Part shown: positions 1 through 5,306 of the stretch, one piece after another
Numbering within the stretch: position 1 is the stretch's first letter
Layout: each line of letters begins with the position of its first letter
DNA from: Candidatus Bathyarchaeia archaeon
GTDB lineage: Archaea > Thermoproteota > Bathyarchaeia > 40CM-2-53-6
Length of the DNA stretch: 64,000 nucleotides
Direction: 5' to 3'
Assembly (NCBI GenBank): GCA_050013255.1
Contig: JBEKFP010000001.1
Span: 1,152,001-1,216,000 of the forward strand
Position numbers and translations under genes: made by a program
The notes under the pieces: generated by a model
What the model saw: the letters and a program-made list of their open reading frames with translations, nothing else
Database searches by the model: none
What the model was told of the DNA's origin: nothing

Positions 1-2
1 AT

Positions 3-665
3 GTAGTAGTGCGCAGCCGGTACACGGAGGACCGCTTGGCCGACGCGGTAGAGAATGGTGTTCAGCAATACCTGATATTGGGCGCTGGCCTCGACACGTT
101 CCCATATCGACAACCTCATTGGGCGAGAGTATTGCGGATTTTCGAAGTAGATCAATCAACGAGCCAGTGTTCGAAGCGCGAACGGTTGGCCATGGCTGGG
201 ATTGAGGTTCCGTCGAATGTCGAGCTAATCGCTTGTGATTTCGAGACCATTTCTCTCCGTGATTGTTTGCGCAGAAGCAGCTTCGATTTTGGGAAACCCG
301 CGTTTCTTTCATGGCTCGGTGTGACGATGTATCTAAGCACGGACGCGATTGATGCAGTATTCAGGTTTGCAAGTTCGCTGCCAAAATCGAGTGAGATTGT
401 CTTCACGTTTGCATCTCCGGCGTCTACAGTGAAGGAAATCGGACGTGAACCCTTGCTTGCCGCATTCACGGCATTCGCTGCAGCACACGGAGAACCATGG
501 CGTACCTTTTTCGAGCCAGACGACTTGGCCCACAAATTGCAAGAGTTAGGTTTTTCGACCGTATCATTTCTTTCGGCTTCGGACGCTGATACACTATATT
601 TCCGAGGTCGTCACGACGGTCTCAAGATACGGCAAAGAGTCGGAATTGTAACCGCTACGGTCTAA
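3..665 (+). CDS. SAM-dependent methyltransferase, LCM/TIGR00027-like (5'-partial at window edge)
   Basis: R-S-R-Y-T-E-D, LILGAGLDT, FEVD and WLGVTMYL motifs. Frame is open back to the window edge. Confidence 0.9.
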   Translation, partial: VVVRSRYTEDRLADAVENGVQQYLILGAGLDTFPYRQPHWARVLRIFEVDQSTSQCSKRERLAMAGIEVPSNVELIACDFETISLRDCLRRSSFDFGKPAFLSWLGVTMYLSTDAIDAVFRFASSLPKSSEIVFTFASPASTVKEIGREPLLAAFTAFAAAHGEPWRTFFEPDDLAHKLQELGFSTVSFLSASDADTLYFRGRHDGLKIRQRVGIVTATV

Positions 666-683
666 ACCTATCCACTCTCAGGA

Positions 684-769
684 TGCGTGTGGCTCTAGCG
701 GTGCGGACGACCAGAATTGAACCGTCGTTTTAGTGCGTGTGTGCGTACCACTAGACCCGCACGCACAAA
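684..769. repeat. tRNA-3'-like/hairpin repeat, complete copy
   Basis: Arms 684-705 and 744-765 are inverted repeats (18/22 match). Minus strand reads GGTTCAATT-CTGGT-CGTCCGC-A-CCG. Internal hairpin GTGCGTGTG...CGCACGCAC. Confidence 0.8.
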
Positions 770-924
770 TTTCTGGCAATTTGGTTCAGGGCTGATGCTT
801 TATCGAGCTAAGGTCTCTTCTCAACCGGTTTAGTAATACCGGAGACTTCCGGGTCTATACAAAATAGAATCTATGAAGAATTAACGTATAATGATTCGGC
901 GTGTTCCTAGCCGAACGATGAGCG

Positions 925-1176
925 ATGGGTTTCGATCCCACAACCGTAATGAACTTCGTCCTAACTATCATAATATTCGTCTTGGGCGTTGCGCTGTATG
1001 GCAGGAAGAAGAACGTCATGACTCTCTACATCGGCATAGCTTTCGGCCTTTTCGCTATCTCTCACCTGGCAACCTTGCTTGACCTTGCTGCCACTCTAAC
1101 AGTTCCGCTCATAGCAGTCCGGGCAATTGCGTACATTGTAGTCATCATTGCATTGCTCACGTTTTGGAAGAAGTGA
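925..1176 (+). CDS. small membrane protein, about 3 TM helices
   Basis: 83-aa ORF with three hydrophobic segments, ending in KK. Confidence 0.8.
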   Translation: MGFDPTTVMNFVLTIIIFVLGVALYGRKKNVMTLYIGIAFGLFAISHLATLLDLAATLTVPLIAVRAIAYIVVIIALLTFWKK

Positions 1177-1192
1177 AACTGGAAAGACTCTC

Positions 1193-1268
1193 GCTTTAGT
1201 GGTTCACCCACACAAAACGGTACGAACAACGATTCAAGTTACGTGGCTCGCACCATTAAACCGACACC
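1193..1268. repeat. tRNA-3'-like/hairpin repeat, inverted degenerate copy
   Basis: Plus strand reads TTCAAGT-TACGT-GGCTCGC-A-CCA-TTAAACC. Reverse complement aligns with 5215-5300. Confidence 0.75.
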
Positions 1269-1331
1269 TATGAAAAGTCTGTAGACTATGCTTTCGTCTC
1301 CGCGGATGGTCTTCTGCGTGGCGTTCAAGTG

Positions 1332-1366
1332 GTGTGTGTGCGCACCAGTAGACCCACACACACAAA
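1332..1366. repeat. hairpin-only copy of the repeat
   Basis: GTGTGTGTG-CGCACCAGTAGACC-CACACACAC-AAA: perfect 9-bp stem, 14-nt loop. Confidence 0.8.
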
Positions 1367-1476
1367 CCGGCGTCGTTCATGTAATTTTGTGTGTATACAA
1401 ATTCCAAATTCCAACAGAACCGTAAAGTAAATTTGTGTGCGATCGTGATGCACTTTCGGAGTTGTGTGTTCGAGCA

Positions 1477-2115
1477 ATGGGGAATGAAGTACTGGATGCC
1501 ATTATGCAGCGACGCAGTATCTATCAGTTCAAGCCTGAGGCAGTCCCTACTGAGAAGATTACTTCCATTTTGGAGGCGGGTCGTTGGGCTCCGTCATATG
1601 CGAATAGTCAGCCATGGGAATTCATCACCGTAACTGATAGCAAATTGAAGCAGGAGGTTGTCGAGATAGCTAAGGAAACTATGGCTGCGCATGCAGGAAT
1701 AGAAGGAGCGCACACAATCATCGCAACATGTGTGGATCCCGAGAAAGATCAATATCACTTCATTGAAGACGGTGCTGTAGCAACACAGAACATGGCTCTG
1801 GCAGCACATAGCCTGGGGTTAGCGACCTATTGGGTCGGGATATTTAGTCTTATGAACGATAGGAAATCAGTCGAGCATAGAATCAAGGAGGTTCTGAACA
1901 TACCTGAAAAAATCCGCGTGATTTCTTTGTTGCCCATAGGTGTGCCTGCGTATAGTGTAGAGAAGCAAAGAAAGCGGTTGGAGGAGATTTGCCACGTTGA
2001 CAAGTATGGCAGCAGACAATCAGGTGTGGGAGTAGAGGATCAGGACAAGAAGACCGAGATAGAAGCACAGAGGCATGGCATGAGAGCGCATTTGCCCCGC
2101 GTCGCACCAACTTGA
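1477..2115 (+). CDS. nitroreductase family protein
   Basis: RRSIYQF, WAPSYANSQPWEF, QNMALAAHSLGL. ATG 1477 preferred over the track start at 1435. Confidence 0.93.
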   Translation: MGNEVLDAIMQRRSIYQFKPEAVPTEKITSILEAGRWAPSYANSQPWEFITVTDSKLKQEVVEIAKETMAAHAGIEGAHTIIATCVDPEKDQYHFIEDGAVATQNMALAAHSLGLATYWVGIFSLMNDRKSVEHRIKEVLNIPEKIRVISLLPIGVPAYSVEKQRKRLEEICHVDKYGSRQSGVGVEDQDKKTEIEAQRHGMRAHLPRVAPT

Positions 2116-2150
2116 TTGATTGGATCATGAGCCAACGTCAGGAGTGGCGG

Positions 2151-2163
2151 GCACACACACAAA
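2151..2163. repeat. remnant right arm of the repeat (GCACACACACAAA)
   Basis: Matches the CACACACACAAA end of other copies and lies between convergent stop codons. Very short. Confidence 0.4.
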
Positions 2164-2778
2164 TCAGCGTTTTCGCGCTACAACGGAAAATACGTGCCAA
2201 TGCTTCCTTCGTTCATGAAGTGCTGGCCTGTCATCTTTCTCCTGTTCGAGAAAGAATTCGATCTCAAATGGACGCAGTAGTGCCTTAACTTGCTTAGCGG
2301 TATGAAATGTCCCATTTGAACTGCGAGCCCAATCATCGTGAACGCCGAAGAAATGGCCTGAAAGCCTTCCTCCAGTACGAATCGAGGTTACGATCTTTCG
2401 CCAGAAAGAATGGAACCGTTTCGGTGAGCAAAACGGTAGGCTGTAACTTGCATTTACAAGATCACATCTGGGTAAGGATGATCTCTCGAATGAAGTCACA
2501 CGGGTTCTTAGTTGCTCTCTATGCGTTGGGGATACGTTAGATCGGATCCATCTAATCGCTCCAGCCTCACTGTCTACAGCCAGCACTTTCCAGCCTCGTC
2601 GCAGCAACTCTGACGTATCCCGACCACCTCCACATCCCAAATCAATCGCAAAACGCATCTTCTTTCGTGACGGTTCAGCGTCAAACGAAGAAAGTGCTTT
2701 TTGCAGGGTTTCGTAAGGAGGACGCTTTGAAGTCGCTTTGTAATAATCAAGCCAACGTGGTTCTCTGCGTTTGGACAT
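2164..2778 (-). CDS. class I SAM-dependent methyltransferase
   Basis: AIDLGCGGGRD motif I, LAVD, SLPFC, GHFFG. Likely start MSKRREP at 2778. Confidence 0.9.
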   Translation of the reverse strand: MSKRREPRWLDYYKATSKRPPYETLQKALSSFDAEPSRKKMRFAIDLGCGGGRDTSELLRRGWKVLAVDSEAGAIRWIRSNVSPTHREQLRTRVTSFERSSLPRCDLVNASYSLPFCSPKRFHSFWRKIVTSIRTGGRLSGHFFGVHDDWARSSNGTFHTAKQVKALLRPFEIEFFLEQEKDDRPALHERRKHWHVFSVVARKR

Positions 2779-2966
2779 AGAAGCAAAGTACAGCGGTTCT
2801 CGCTGATAACTATCGCCTAGATCCTCAGCTCTACAGTTGTAGAAGATACTTCCACTAACAGGTGGGGATCGTAAGCTGACTCTCGGTAGTAGTCGTAACG
2901 ACACTAGTCAACGACGCCTCCCATCCCCTATTTCATCGGTTCTTCTCCTTTCGGAAATTAGACAGC

Positions 2967-3191
2967 GTGCTTAAAACGCAACACGCTGACGCAATGATTA
3001 TGGTTCTAACCAGTTACGAGTGGGTTGCCGTTCTCATAATCATCGTGGTTATTGCTCTGGCGTATTTGTTCTGGCGCTCCTTTTCGCGCAGAATGGAAGG
3101 TACACAAAGACCACAGACGACCACTGGTGCAGGATGGAACAGTCGCATACGGAGTAATCAGACGCAAGACATCAAATCGAAAATCAGCTGA
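2967..3191 (+). CDS. small single-TM hypothetical protein
   Basis: One hydrophobic helix followed by a basic/polar tail. Start could be ATG 2994. Confidence 0.55.
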   Translation: MLKTQHADAMIMVLTSYEWVAVLIIIVVIALAYLFWRSFSRRMEGTQRPQTTTGAGWNSRIRSNQTQDIKSKIS

Positions 3192-3319
3192 CACATAGAT
3201 GCAAAGTTGACGACTGATAGCAGCTTTCACGGCAACCTGAAACAATGATTCACCTGTTTATGCGATTCTAGTTGGCCCAAGTACTTTATACCAACCAGCC
3301 CAATGAGGCTGTGATTGTG

Positions 3320-3583
3320 ATGACGACAGGTTTTCATGAGTTCGACAACAGAATCCATGACTTGGCTGAACGGGAAAATGAGTGTGACGGCCTGTTCGAA
3401 GAAATTAAGAATGGCAACGGCGACAAATCACTGCGCTATCTTGCACTGAGAGATTCCTGCAAAGAGTTGAGAAACAAAATTTTCAGGAGCGCTAGGTCAG
3501 CGGGACTAACGCGGGAAAGAATCAAGACGGAGATCAAGGAAGCAAGAAACCAGACGACCGCCACTAACGCGAAACACACTTAG
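3320..3583 (+). CDS. hypothetical helical protein
   Basis: Charged helical ORF. ATG 3320 preferred over the track start at 3272. Confidence 0.6.
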   Translation: MTTGFHEFDNRIHDLAERENECDGLFEEIKNGNGDKSLRYLALRDSCKELRNKIFRSARSAGLTRERIKTEIKEARNQTTATNAKHT

Positions 3584-3667
3584 GAAGAATCGATAGAATC
3601 ACCCAGATTTTTTGCGGAACTGGTTCAAGAGCTGAAATAGGCCCCCGGTCGTCAGTCGGTCACTTCA

Positions 3668-3699
3668 TGTGTGTGTGCGCACGACCAGACGCACACAAA
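3668..3699. repeat. hairpin-only degenerate copy of the repeat
   Basis: TGTGTGCG(3672-3679)-CACGACCAGA-CGCACACA(3690-3697): perfect 8-bp stem. Confidence 0.7.
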
Positions 3700-3741
3700 C
3701 TTTCTGTCAGTCGAACCAACTACGGCATACACGCGATAATA

Positions 3742-4185
3742 TCATTCGACGGTGAAGAGTTCGTGGTCAGGCATTCGATGAAGGGCAAGTGCGATTTCTT
3801 GAACCTCGCGTTGAGGCGAACTTGCGGAGACTCGAGAGAGTAGGGCGGCGGTTTTCTCGGTGGGGCCAATTAGGATGACGCGGTTGCCCTTTCGAAATCT
3901 TACTTTGATGCGTTGAGACTCTTTTACTATGATATTTCCCTTGCCTAAAGTGCAGCCACTGGATACCTGAATACCATCTAGCATGCAGGATTCCGGTGGC
4001 GATTTCCTGGTCCAAACTGTCGCAGATAACTCATGAAGTCGCTTAGGCTTCAACCTTTGAATGGCTATCACGCCCATCCGAAGACCAAATACTAGGTACG
4101 GACCTAGGTGACCATGAAAATCCACGCCCTCCTTCAGCAGACGCTGGCGGCCTGAGGCTCGTTTCTTTGTCACGGTGGTGCCCAC
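3742..4185 (-). CDS. FmdE/FwdE family metal-binding protein
   Basis: FHGHLGP, GLRMG and C-x-x-DGIQ-x-SSGCTLGKGN signature. Confidence 0.92.
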   Translation of the reverse strand: MGTTVTKKRASGRQRLLKEGVDFHGHLGPYLVFGLRMGVIAIQRLKPKRLHELSATVWTRKSPPESCMLDGIQVSSGCTLGKGNIIVKESQRIKVRFRKGNRVILIGPTEKTAALLSRVSASSPQREVQEIALALHRMPDHELFTVE

Positions 4186-4652
4186 TTGCGCAAGAGAAGA
4201 TCCCCAAGATGAAAACGCCTAGTGAGAATATCAACAACAGCAGCGCAAATCACATTCTCAACAGTCAAGAGAGCCAGAATAGTCTGCACAGCCACAGCTG
4301 GAACATGAAGAACTAATGTATCAACGAGATAAATCCACGGAGCCTGAATCAAGACCCACGCAACCAAACCTGCCAATACGGGTCGGAGCTTGCGGGAAAA
4401 GACCGCAATGAACAACCCCAAGAGCCCGTTTCCGACCACGATCGTCGGGTCTGACCTAATCATAGCCACATATGACCCTCCAACTAAGCCCGTGATGAGT
4501 CCGGATAGAGGACCACCCGCAACTCCAGCCAACATTATGCCTGTTTGAAAAAAGTGGATTCCCGTTCCGAACAGGAATGGTACCATTAAAAGACTAAGCA
4601 CAACTGTCACCGCACTAATCCCAGCCGTGAACGCCACAAGCCTGCTGTTCAT
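4170..4652 (-). CDS. ECF transporter S component
   Basis: Multi-TM protein with the GGPLSGLITGLVGG ECF-S-like motif. ATG at 4652. Confidence 0.75.
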   Translation of the reverse strand: MNSRLVAFTAGISAVTVVLSLLMVPFLFGTGIHFFQTGIMLAGVAGGPLSGLITGLVGGSYVAMIRSDPTIVVGNGLLGLFIAVFSRKLRPVLAGLVAWVLIQAPWIYLVDTLVLHVPAVAVQTILALLTVENVICAAVVDILTRRFHLGDLLLRKWAPP

Positions 4653-4662
4653 CGATTGCAAA

Positions 4663-4690
4663 GTATTACCGTTTCACCGAATCGTAATAA
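4663..4690. promoter_or_regulatory. putative NikR operator
   Basis: GTATTA-N16-TAATAA dyad with the same geometry as the E. coli NikR site GTATGA-N16-TCATAC. Lies between the divergent ECF-S and nikR genes. Confidence 0.6.
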
Positions 4691-4739
4691 TGATATTAAA
4701 AAGTACTGACCAATTCCAAGATGTTGGAGATAACCCGCC

Positions 4740-5147
4740 TTGGTTAGGGTAGAAAGGATTAGTTTCTCAACGCCGCCGGCACTACTAGAGCAATTTGACG
4801 ATTCCCTCAGAACACTCGGGTACAAGGATCGGTCGACGGCCCTGCAGATCGCAATGAGGAACTTCATCACAGAATACTCTTGGAGAAAGGAAGCAGGAAC
4901 ACCCGGAGCAGGAACGATCTTGCTGACTTACAACCATGAATCACATGGTCTTCAAGAAGCCTTGACGGACATCCAACATCAATTCCGCGACATCGTGAAC
5001 TCAACTACTCACATTCATCTTGACGAAACTCGGTGTCTGGAGATAATATCCGTCAAGGGGAGAATGGAGCGCATTCAAGCATTGGCAAAGAACATCATGA
5101 AGACACGTGGGGTAACGCAGCTCAGGCTATCAACCGTTGCTGTCTAG
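4740..5147 (+). CDS. nikR: nickel-responsive regulator NikR
   Basis: RHH N-terminus (RISFS...GYKDRS) and C-terminal YNH, QH, HIHLD...CLE nickel ligands. Confidence 0.93.
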   Translation: MVRVERISFSTPPALLEQFDDSLRTLGYKDRSTALQIAMRNFITEYSWRKEAGTPGAGTILLTYNHESHGLQEALTDIQHQFRDIVNSTTHIHLDETRCLEIISVKGRMERIQALAKNIMKTRGVTQLRLSTVAV

Positions 5148-5154
5148 AGAGTAA

Positions 5155-5200
5155 GTGTGCGGTACTATTAATGCAGGGAGGCAAATTTGAACCGTCGTCG
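5155..5200. repeat. degenerate tandem copy of the repeat
   Basis: AATTTGAACCGTCGTCG at 5184-5200 is identical to 5247-5263 and is preceded by a decayed GTGTGCGG arm. Confidence 0.7.
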
Positions 5201-5214
5201 GTAGAGTAATTTTC

Positions 5215-5300
5215 TGTGTGTGTGGGTCTAATGGTGCGGGCAACGTAATTTGAACCGTCGTCGTTCGTCGTTAGAAAGTGTGTGTGCGCAACAATAGACG
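5215..5300. repeat. tRNA-3'-like/hairpin repeat, best-preserved left arm
   Basis: Minus strand reads GGTTCAAAT-TACGT-TGCCCGC-A-CCA-TTAGACC-CACACACACA. Right end on plus strand is GTGTGTGTGCGCAACAATAGAC. Confidence 0.8.
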
Positions 5301-5306
5301 AGCTAT

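Follow-up and report, generated by a model that had tools for sequence, protein, structure and literature searches.

The repeats at the left end of the window (the whole 64,000-nucleotide stretch of Bathyarchaeia DNA analysed here) are most likely traces of a Cas1-type transposase (casposase): scars left by its insertions, tips of element ends and landing pads that mimic tRNA. They separate gene units that lack the enzyme and are stacked behind a tRNA gene. Judged from its sequence, the window most likely carries a natural array of non-autonomous mini-casposons, made by chemistry of the CRISPR kind, and not an integron. In published descriptions, casposons are self-synthesizing and rarely met. 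The idea that CRISPR repeats and leaders go back to a repeatedly duplicated casposase target is based on a small number of two-element tandems, together with a single engineered mini-casposon. The genomes studied here contain the leader-repeat-insert-repeat layout as a natural feature, with about 110 occurrences per genome and leader-proximal polarity, and ordinary genes apparently move with it between species. No published description of such arrays was found in the literature searched, most subscription journals being outside its scope.

Anatomy and distribution of the repeat sites

All elements listed in the original prediction are present in the window, and a search at a relaxed score gave no further copy from 5.3 kb up to 64 kb. 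The copies are real, but the family extends beyond the window: we counted 112 sites in 31 clusters genome-wide, one T site (see below) lies 269 bp before window position 1, and the family is also found in 20 of 22 other genomes of the same Bathyarchaeia genus. The site model gave 79 matches in the genome and none in the reversed-genome control, the full site model 115 versus 0. The layout of leader, repeat and insert occupies about 100 kb (4%) of the genome. As noted in the original prediction, unrelated small genes lie between the sites, most of which are located 8-85 nt downstream of a stop codon.

The H module had been read as a 13-6-13 dyad. Since core positions 8-14 are the variable ones, the correct reading is 9-14-9, with a directional 14-bp core beginning CGCACCA and an element tip on each side. 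The arms are interchangeable around this core, an identical long arm being seen on either side of it at different sites, and the sites bracket Cas1-solo elements with identical direct duplications; both findings speak against H as an att-like site. The T module does resemble a tRNA 3' end: it is a tRNA-mimic leader with TCAAAT at -15 to -10, exactly where characterised casposases read. T-stem pairing in T sites averages 2.4 of 5 and the casposase-read bases are retained, a column conservation that is partly circular since T sites were chosen by motif; this does not fit T-H junctions as crossovers that left part of a tRNA behind. Upstream of the window, at a distance of about 390 bp, lies a tRNA that ends CCCGCCA, not CGCACCA as expected for an intact source tRNA. 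Anchoring at tRNAs was not found to be a general rule (4 of 31 clusters within 500 bp of a tRNA 3' end vs. 1.7 expected, p 0.08), and Rfam and ARAGORN gave no matches in the window.

Cas1-solo elements

A Cas1-solo gene is carried only by two elements elsewhere in the genome, E1 and E2, and by none of the window units; these units are therefore non-autonomous at best. E1 (C1:1330273-1346555; 16,283 bp) encodes an intact 407-aa Cas1-solo, is flanked by an identical 14-bp direct repeat and ends in an imperfect TIR of about 132 bp that opens with the same tip as the window sites; this 9-bp tip is all that the window units share with E1. E2 (about 11 kb; 404-aa Cas1-solo; matching 13-14-bp repeat) has the same core as the window sites and a different tip.

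Among PDB structures, the M. mazei casposase (6OPM) matches the Cas1-solo of E1 best (E 4e-74, residues 4-402), the next Cas1 following at 6e-24. The catalytic residues E167/H236/E253 are intact, and the 6OPM alignment covers the C-terminal HTH extension, a feature of family 2 casposases; from this PDB match, the enzyme appears to be family-2-like. Residues R191/R192, which contact CGCA in M. mazei, align to H/Q in E1 and H/N in E2, the loop alignment being gapped nearby. Casposon traits found here are the TIR (in E1) and the 14-bp TSD, and the target is of the family 2 type, with a T-loop leader and CGCA/CC at +1. Neither E1 nor E2 contains PolB (the PolB matches of the genome are on another contig and the pPolB search was empty), no PolB annotation was found near six related casposase genes, and a search for Cas2 gave no match. 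A 121-aa ORF of E1 was considered as a primase replacing PolB and was rejected, as the leads were a motif and an Atlas match only and no PDB fold matched significantly.

A site within 1.5 kb was found at 5 of 23 cas1 loci only, because cas1 sits deep inside the elements. Within about 10 kb on each side, 16 of 17 fetched cas1 loci had sites compared to 27% of random 20-kb windows (two of the 17 overlap, and the one exception is a contig cut inside an E1 copy). Tip type tracks the casposase subtype, and the T-core-tip pattern was present in 14 of 16 casposase-positive genomes vs. 27 of 285 others, kin being non-independent. Two near-complete relatives (G016 and G018) contain sites and gave no casposase match.

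The island in the window

The window sites belong to an island of 5.7 kb that starts on the left at a tRNA 3' end (Table 1). Cores begin at 744, 1249, 1341, 3678 and 5287 on the + strand and at 705 and 5238 on the - strand and are alike at 10-13 of 14 positions; a degenerate - strand core (5175-5162) and a lone tip (2152-2160) accompany them. The core at 744-757 is identical to the leader-proximal core at -269 at 12 of 14 positions. At least seven ends elsewhere in the genome resemble the end at 5239-5286 (80-91% alike) and are located on either side of cores.

Table 1. Features of the island, in window coordinates; functional labels of sites are putative
Feature	Position	Strand	Details
LCM-family SAM methyltransferase gene, 3' part, unit 1 cargo	1-665	+	PF04072 (Pfam); gene start about 190 bp before window
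Candidate inward-facing decoy target in right end of unit 1	683-729	-	leader 729-706, 14-bp core 705-692, occupied by tip 691-683
Putative tandem junction	735-766	+	tip 735-743, core (TSD copy) 744-757, tip 758-766
Small membrane protein, weakly DUF5985-like, unit 2 cargo	925-1176	+	below Pfam cut-off
Candidate decoy target travelling with unit-2 module	1205-1262	+	worn tip, leader 1229-1248, core 1249-1262
Left end, truncated, of a different element family; adjoins decoy core	1263-1331	+	recurs at C1:197649, C1:633267, C2:746092
Putative tandem junction	1332-1363	+	tip 1332-1340, core 1341-1354, tip 1355-1363
Nitroreductase module, begins at element tip	1355-2144	+	ORF 1435-2115, PF00881
Element tip and 7-nt core remnant CCCGCCA	2145-2160	-	tip 2152-2160; the remnant of the original prediction
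Class I SAM methyltransferase gene, cargo	2164-2904	-	PF13649
74-aa membrane ORF, cargo	2967-3191	+	same module as class I methyltransferase
103-aa ORF, no known family	3272-3583	+	in multicopy module 3198-3677
Putative tandem junction	3669-3700	+	tip 3669-3677, worn core 3678-3691, tip 3692-3700
Unit 4 cargo	3742-5147		FmdE-family gene 3742-4185 (-); ECF S-component-like 4170-4661 (-); NikR 4740-5147 (+)
Candidate inner worn decoy target	5155-5200	-	leader 5200-5176, core 5175-5162, tip 5161-5155
Candidate outer decoy target	5216-5262	-	leader 5262-5239, consensus core 5238-5225, tip 5224-5216; top-scoring site of window
Decoy-bearing element end	5239-5286	-	tip 5286-5278, ACG repeats, leader; recurring end family
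Distal worn core, then host sequence (island right border)	5287-5300	+	

Duplications, polarity and proposed mechanism

Between neighbouring cores on the same strand the variable 7 nt match above chance (p about 2e-4), and no such matching was seen between neighbours on opposite strands (p 0.46); identical cores on opposite strands, the signature of inversion, were not enriched. Perfect core matches were observed in 7 of 26 leader-proximal pairs, whereas the 28 internal pairs had none (Fisher p 0.004). Of 48 T sites, 23 (about half, compared to a background of 3.6%) are located just inside a tip, at 34-52 nt, and thus units seem to bring their own landing pads. A tip is present on the 3' side of 84 cores and on the 5' side of 47, an imbalance suggesting that deletions or one-ended events are common.

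We propose that a family-2-like casposase is supplied in trans from PolB-less casposons elsewhere in the genome. Its target would resemble a tRNA 3' end, with CGCA following the leader TTCAAAT (-16 to -10); the enzyme would cut this target with a 14-bp stagger and join tips ending GTGTGTG to it, the core being duplicated at each insertion. Insertion would leave T-core-tip as its scar on the leader side and tip-core-host on the distal side; where two units are stacked, their junction would read tip-core-tip (H). Cas1-less units of 0.6-5 kb would ride on this casposase and carry ordinary accessory genes. Many ends appear to hold an inward-facing, non-pairing target copy, and with it each arrival would add a new landing pad, allowing arrays to grow and nest away from real tRNAs. 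The sequences show the anatomy of the sites, the duplications, a link to Cas1-solo, insertion relative to kin and the sharing of modules; catalysis by these Cas1 proteins, their action in trans, the use of decoys and the way in which cargo is first captured are inferred. Against this mechanism speak the residues at the R191/R192 positions, the sites of G016 and G018, the imbalance of joins, the few cas1 loci with a site within 1.5 kb, and the incomplete units and missing distal duplication described below. We lean slightly towards a still wider reading, a self-perpetuating Cas1-driven gene-capture platform with selected decoy targets in unit ends, in which casposases build and shuffle polar arrays across a Bathyarchaeia order. 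If true, this platform would be functionally analogous to integrons and would illustrate, in living cells, the step proposed to lead from casposons to CRISPR.

Alternative explanations

Scars made by a casposase might also surround mere debris, gene units being eroded large casposons that were reshuffled by recombination between repeats and not moved in trans. Many cas1 fragments with stops in or near arrays, imprecise module boundaries and the imbalance of joins agree with this origin, which we nevertheless consider unlikely: Cas1-less units of 0.6-2.4 kb have perfect, locally distinct duplications, the duplication matches at 13 of 14 positions in a Cas1-less 5.2-kb unit with canonical GGGGATAT tips, and shared modules are 91-97% identical between species vs. 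68-82% for core genes.

Integron- or pdif-like cassettes, with H as the dyad of a tyrosine recombinase and T-H as crossovers with tRNA ends, would explain the dyad look, the cassette-sized spacing and the tRNA-like half, and the genome does encode three tyrosine recombinases. However, these are 20-190 kb away from any site, and they score 37-65 bits against an IntI cut-off of 265 bits. Pairs of attC R-boxes occur at 1 of 112 sites, which equals the background (0.7%) and agrees with the predicted dissimilarity to attC. The occurrence of one and the same arm to the left and right of a polar core, a core of 14 bp instead of a 6-8-bp spacer, locally matched direct duplications and the lost T-stem argue in the same direction. 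Such a system, already largely refuted, is highly improbable; what stands is that the sites delimit mobile accessory-gene modules and that the island was built by repeated insertion, by another enzyme and with another geometry than predicted. As a side observation, two of the three tyrosine recombinases adjoin tRNA genes.

Equally hardly credible are REP/BIME-like repeats or an approximately 85-bp MITE accumulating in variable regions, the fallback of the original prediction. The intergenic post-stop position, genome-wide occurrence and alternating orientation would be compatible with them, but no Y1 (RAYT/IS200) transposase was found in the search, 85% of the sites have a neighbour within 3 kb vs. 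23% expected, and the 85-bp composite does not recur in one piece, but has parts that recombine freely. Moreover, Cas1 elements and islands missing from relatives have sites at their borders, and the window sites vanish together with their cargo in relatives.

Comparison with known systems

The mini-casposon reading can be set against family 2 casposons (MetMaz-C1, the tRNA-Leu casposons of M. mazei and AciBoo-C1), which share a Cas1-solo aligned through the C-terminal extension, TIRs, a 14-bp TSD with CGCA, a leader motif at -15 to -9 from the tRNA T-loop and tandem insertion with one shared TSD (PMC4779613, PMC6614799, PMC6977970). The A. boonei leader has TCAAATC at -15 to -9 (PMC6614799), and the M. 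mazei TSD of 14 bp starts with CGCA (PMC4779613; PMC6977970). Unlike these casposons, autonomous elements here contain no PolB, tips are CA repeats vs. GGGGATAT, each genome has about 110 sites, accessory genes are carried by natural units without Cas1, and targets are mostly non-tRNA decoys, many inside ends. Casposases of the proposed family 5 are likewise mostly PolB-less and were proposed to be non-self-replicating, but they have no C-terminal HTH and are near I-A Cas1, whereas the Cas1-solo here aligns to family 2 along its whole length; the accessible part of that source describes no arrays or non-autonomous units (PMC9755687). In M. mazei, an engineered mini-casposon consisting of TIR and TSD only was moved by the chromosomal Cas1solo and integrated in vivo in tandem with the resident casposon (PMC10359463). 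That unit was artificial and single, whereas those here are natural, many and gene-bearing. The array would be a natural version of this casposon kind, PolB-less and non-autonomous, with a presumed activity. Hundreds of natural target and end variants are available for testing casposase specificity, and a compact cargo-insertion tool with 9-bp tips, a roughly 30-bp target and one protein is suggested.

Acinetobacter pdif modules form arrays of accessory modules separated by short sites. Integrons, including archaeal ones (PMC9668308), similarly hold arrays of one-to-few-gene modules between short sites. Unlike both, the arrays here show no IntI, attC or Xer-type fixed arms, and their sites would be duplications, not recombination substrates. 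With CRISPR arrays they share a leader, direct repeats that are short, growth that is polar and takes place next to the leader and, presumably, Cas1 chemistry. They differ in that the repeat is 14 bp long, the inserts are of gene size and have tips of their own, and there is no Cas2 and no sign of crRNA or immunity.

Relatives and metagenomes

The island is absent from G004, where the alignment resumes at 5305, joined to the tRNA 3' end; none of 16 relatives has a site at the island locus. Island modules recur in other arrays at 83-96% identity: the LCM-family methyltransferase module in G004 and G021 (83-84%), the unit-2 module in G014, G004 and G021 (91-93%), the nitroreductase module in G011 (93%, from the tip itself) and G019 (91%, with the tip on the opposite side of a core), and the class I methyltransferase module (2147-3256) in a G004 array (96%). 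The G014 copy of the unit-2 module ends with the same T site, but has another 3' neighbour, and the G004 copy of the methyltransferase module starts at the equivalent of tip 2152-2160, on a different core. Module 3198-3677 has two further copies in this genome and copies at 73-95% in many relatives. The FmdE/ECF S-component-like/NikR trio recurs at 65-72% in G007 and G020, with no site within 1.5 kb there.

Window units were not found whole, tip to tip, in other genomes; usually one module boundary is on a site and the other is off. At its distal border the island shows no recognisable copy of the outermost tRNA-type duplication, and when exact single-core empty sites for the other units were sought in four relatives, the loci were occupied or rearranged. 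In four peat assemblies, candidate joints for an empty site or excised circles had fewer than 40 matching letters on one side, lay on repeats and were not accepted. These four independent metagenome assemblies cover the island in pieces, and peat run X7 has mismatch-free contigs over the five leftmost sites and over the right end. A second, much deeper copy of the nitroreductase module is present in the peat metagenome runs.

Anatomy and distribution of the sites

All elements listed in the original prediction were present in the window, and its claim that no copy lies beyond 5.3 kb held within the window. In the 2.46-Mb genome a weight matrix found 79 copies, against 0 in the reversed genome; a fuller model, with five real tRNA ends excluded from the count, gave 112 sites in 31 clusters; 85% of these sites had a neighbour within ≤3 kb, compared with 23% expected. 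The common part of the sites was a polar 14-bp core of 7 near-invariant (CGCACCA) and 7 variable bases. It was flanked 5′ by a leader (module T) or an element tip, GTGTGTGTG, and 3′ by the tip CACACACAC or host DNA; module H is thus tip-core-tip, not the att-like 13-6-13 dyad proposed earlier. T, rightly proposed to resemble a tRNA 3′ end, has retained TTCAAAT at -16 to -10, G at -3 and the start of the core, but T-stem pairing is lost (mean 2.4 of 5). One 35-nt end was found 5′ of the core at C1:1329450 and 3′ of another at C1:1355397 (C1 and C3 are host contigs), and the nitroreductase end lay 3′ of a core in the window and 5′ of a core in the relative G019. Such placement fits joining to the target in either orientation rather than fixed recombination arms.

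Among the 22 other genomes of the genus, 20 had the core pattern. At class level the T-core-tip pattern was present in 41 of 301 genomes, and these 41 represent 15 genera, mostly of one order. The repeat was also seen in assemblies titled as the bacteria Acidoferrum (stretch L017) and Methylomirabilota (L019); since their match positions and contig numbers agree with the archaeal-genus genomes G010 and G005, these titles look misassigned.

Cas1-encoding elements of the host

The host genome contained two full Cas1 genes, in the Cas1-solo elements E1 and E2, and a search of it for Cas2 found none. E1 Cas1 matched the M. mazei casposase structure 6OPM over residues 4-402 (E 4e-74), far above any other Cas1, and the catalytic E/H/E was kept in both proteins. 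The A. boonei casposase depends on TCAAATC at -15 to -9, and the duplication it leaves is 14-15 bp long (PMC6614799); M. mazei target site duplications (TSDs) are 14 bp, starting CGCA (PMC4779613). The host sites match this leader and this TSD in both bases and register. Casposase subtype was tracked by tip type in the relatives, and 14 of 16 casposase-positive genomes had the T-core-tip pattern vs 27 of 285 others, kin among them not being independent.

In their working these elements are like family 2 casposons, from which the host elements differ by the absence of PolB and the window units by the absence of Cas1. PolB was absent from both E1 and E2, and none was annotated near six related casposase genes. 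Precedents are two-element tandems and solo terminal inverted repeats (TIRs; PMC4779613), PolB-less casposases (PMC9755687) and an engineered mini-casposon (PMC10359463); the literature searched yielded no description of high-copy natural mini-casposons that carry genes, of decoy targets within element ends or of casposons in Bathyarchaeia.

A conserved 121-aa ORF of E1 had an invariant DxD and GxHxY; it gave an AEP-primase-like lead in Atlas and no significant match in a PDB search. Beside it lies the gene of a 373-aa protein that looks like the helicase portion of primase-helicase fusions, and the pair is a possible PolB substitute. Other E1 cargo (stretches L036, L037) was of defence type (AIPR, Hjc-like nuclease, DndB, DNA methyltransferase), and E2 carried HNH and TIR-domain genes.

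Duplications, mechanism and alternatives

In 35 neighbouring same-strand core pairs the variable 7 nt agreed above shuffles (p about 2e-4), and opposite-strand cores showed no excess. Agreement was perfect in 7 of 26 leader-adjacent pairs and in none of the 28 internal ones, which fits growth of the kind known from CRISPR arrays, where the most recent insertion stands beside the leader. Across the genome, 23 of 48 T sites lay 34-52 nt inside a tip (background 3.6%), and only 4 of 31 clusters touched a real tRNA; a real CGCACCA-ending tRNA (C1:1132495) and its counterpart in the relative G011 were also used as targets.

The sites carry duplication scars and element ends and are linked to Cas1; insertion has occurred, and modules are shared between arrays. 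We suggest that a casposase acting in trans inserts units lacking the enzyme next to the leader and thereby duplicates the core, and that decoys (tRNA mimics away from real tRNAs) within unit ends would supply arrays with new landing pads. Units would later be trimmed and reshuffled by deletions and one-ended events, which are needed because joins at the 3′ side of the core were commoner than at the 5′ side (84 vs 47) and modules common to several arrays often had one precise boundary only. Counting against this mechanism, the CGCA-reading arginines of the M. mazei casposase are not kept in the host's casposases, and two near-complete relatives have sites and no detectable casposase.

That the units are casposon debris and not mobile units is a live but improbable explanation; perfect, locally different duplications flank Cas1-less units of 0.6-2.4 kb. 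The tyrosine-recombinase att or integron array originally predicted was not upheld: none of the three recombinases is an IntI, their distances from any site are 20-190 kb, and attC boxes were at background level across sites. The tRNA upstream of the window ends in CCCGCCA, not in the CGCACCA named in the prediction. A search for the Y1 transposase of REP/MITE-type repeats found none.

The island at the window start

The four units of the island occupy the intervals between the T site at -269 and the successive + strand cores. In the relative G004 the tRNA end is joined directly to window position 5305; sites at this locus were absent from all 16 relatives compared. Other arrays contain the window modules at 83-96% identity, in species whose core genes are 68-76% identical to those here, except G014 at 92%. 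Peat assemblies confirmed the island order in pieces and showed the nitroreductase module a second time, at much greater depth.

Features of the island and related elements (negative positions precede the window start; L numbers are examined DNA stretches)
Feature	Position	Description
E1	C1:1330273-1346555	~132 bp imperfect TIR starting with CA tip; identical 14-bp direct repeat
E1 121-aa ORF	L036:14103-14468
E1 373-aa protein	L036:14490-15611
E2	C3, ~11 kb	G-rich tip; matching repeat
5.2-kb Cas1-less element	L139:3091-8345 (C1:716091-721345)	near-perfect long TIRs starting with the canonical GGGGATAT tip; duplication 13/14
Intron-containing tRNA gene	3′ end ~390 bp before window position 1	end CCCGCCA
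111-bp piece of another end type	C1:1151621-1151731 (L039:3621-3731)	begins GGTTCCAGACC
First T site	-269
+ strand cores	744, 1341, 3678, 5287	12, 13, 10, 11 of 14 bases match the T site at -269
Minus-strand T sites	705, 5238, 5175	inside unit ends, inward-facing
Unit 1		LCM methyltransferase
Unit 2		DUF5985-like gene
Unit 3		nitroreductase, methyltransferase, two small ORFs
Unit 4		FmdE, ECF S component, NikR
Core remnant under lone tip	2145-2151 (-)	CCCGCCA, as in the type of tRNA terminus found upstream; opposite strand
Module with 103-aa ORF	3198-3591	no known family; three host-genome copies, widespread in genus

The 111-bp piece starts exactly 7 nt past the CCA of the tRNA and is followed by the first T site; a partner in inverted orientation was not detected. 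Further copies lie behind tRNA-Ser at C1:855473, at C1:859559 and in G014, and the piece may thus be the adapter end of a different type of element. In the relative G017 the GGGGATAT tip type lies close to a casposase more distant from E1 (43%). One decoy T site, orthologous in three species (L138:6731; L159:3612; L160:2521), differed between them in variable core bases and cargo.
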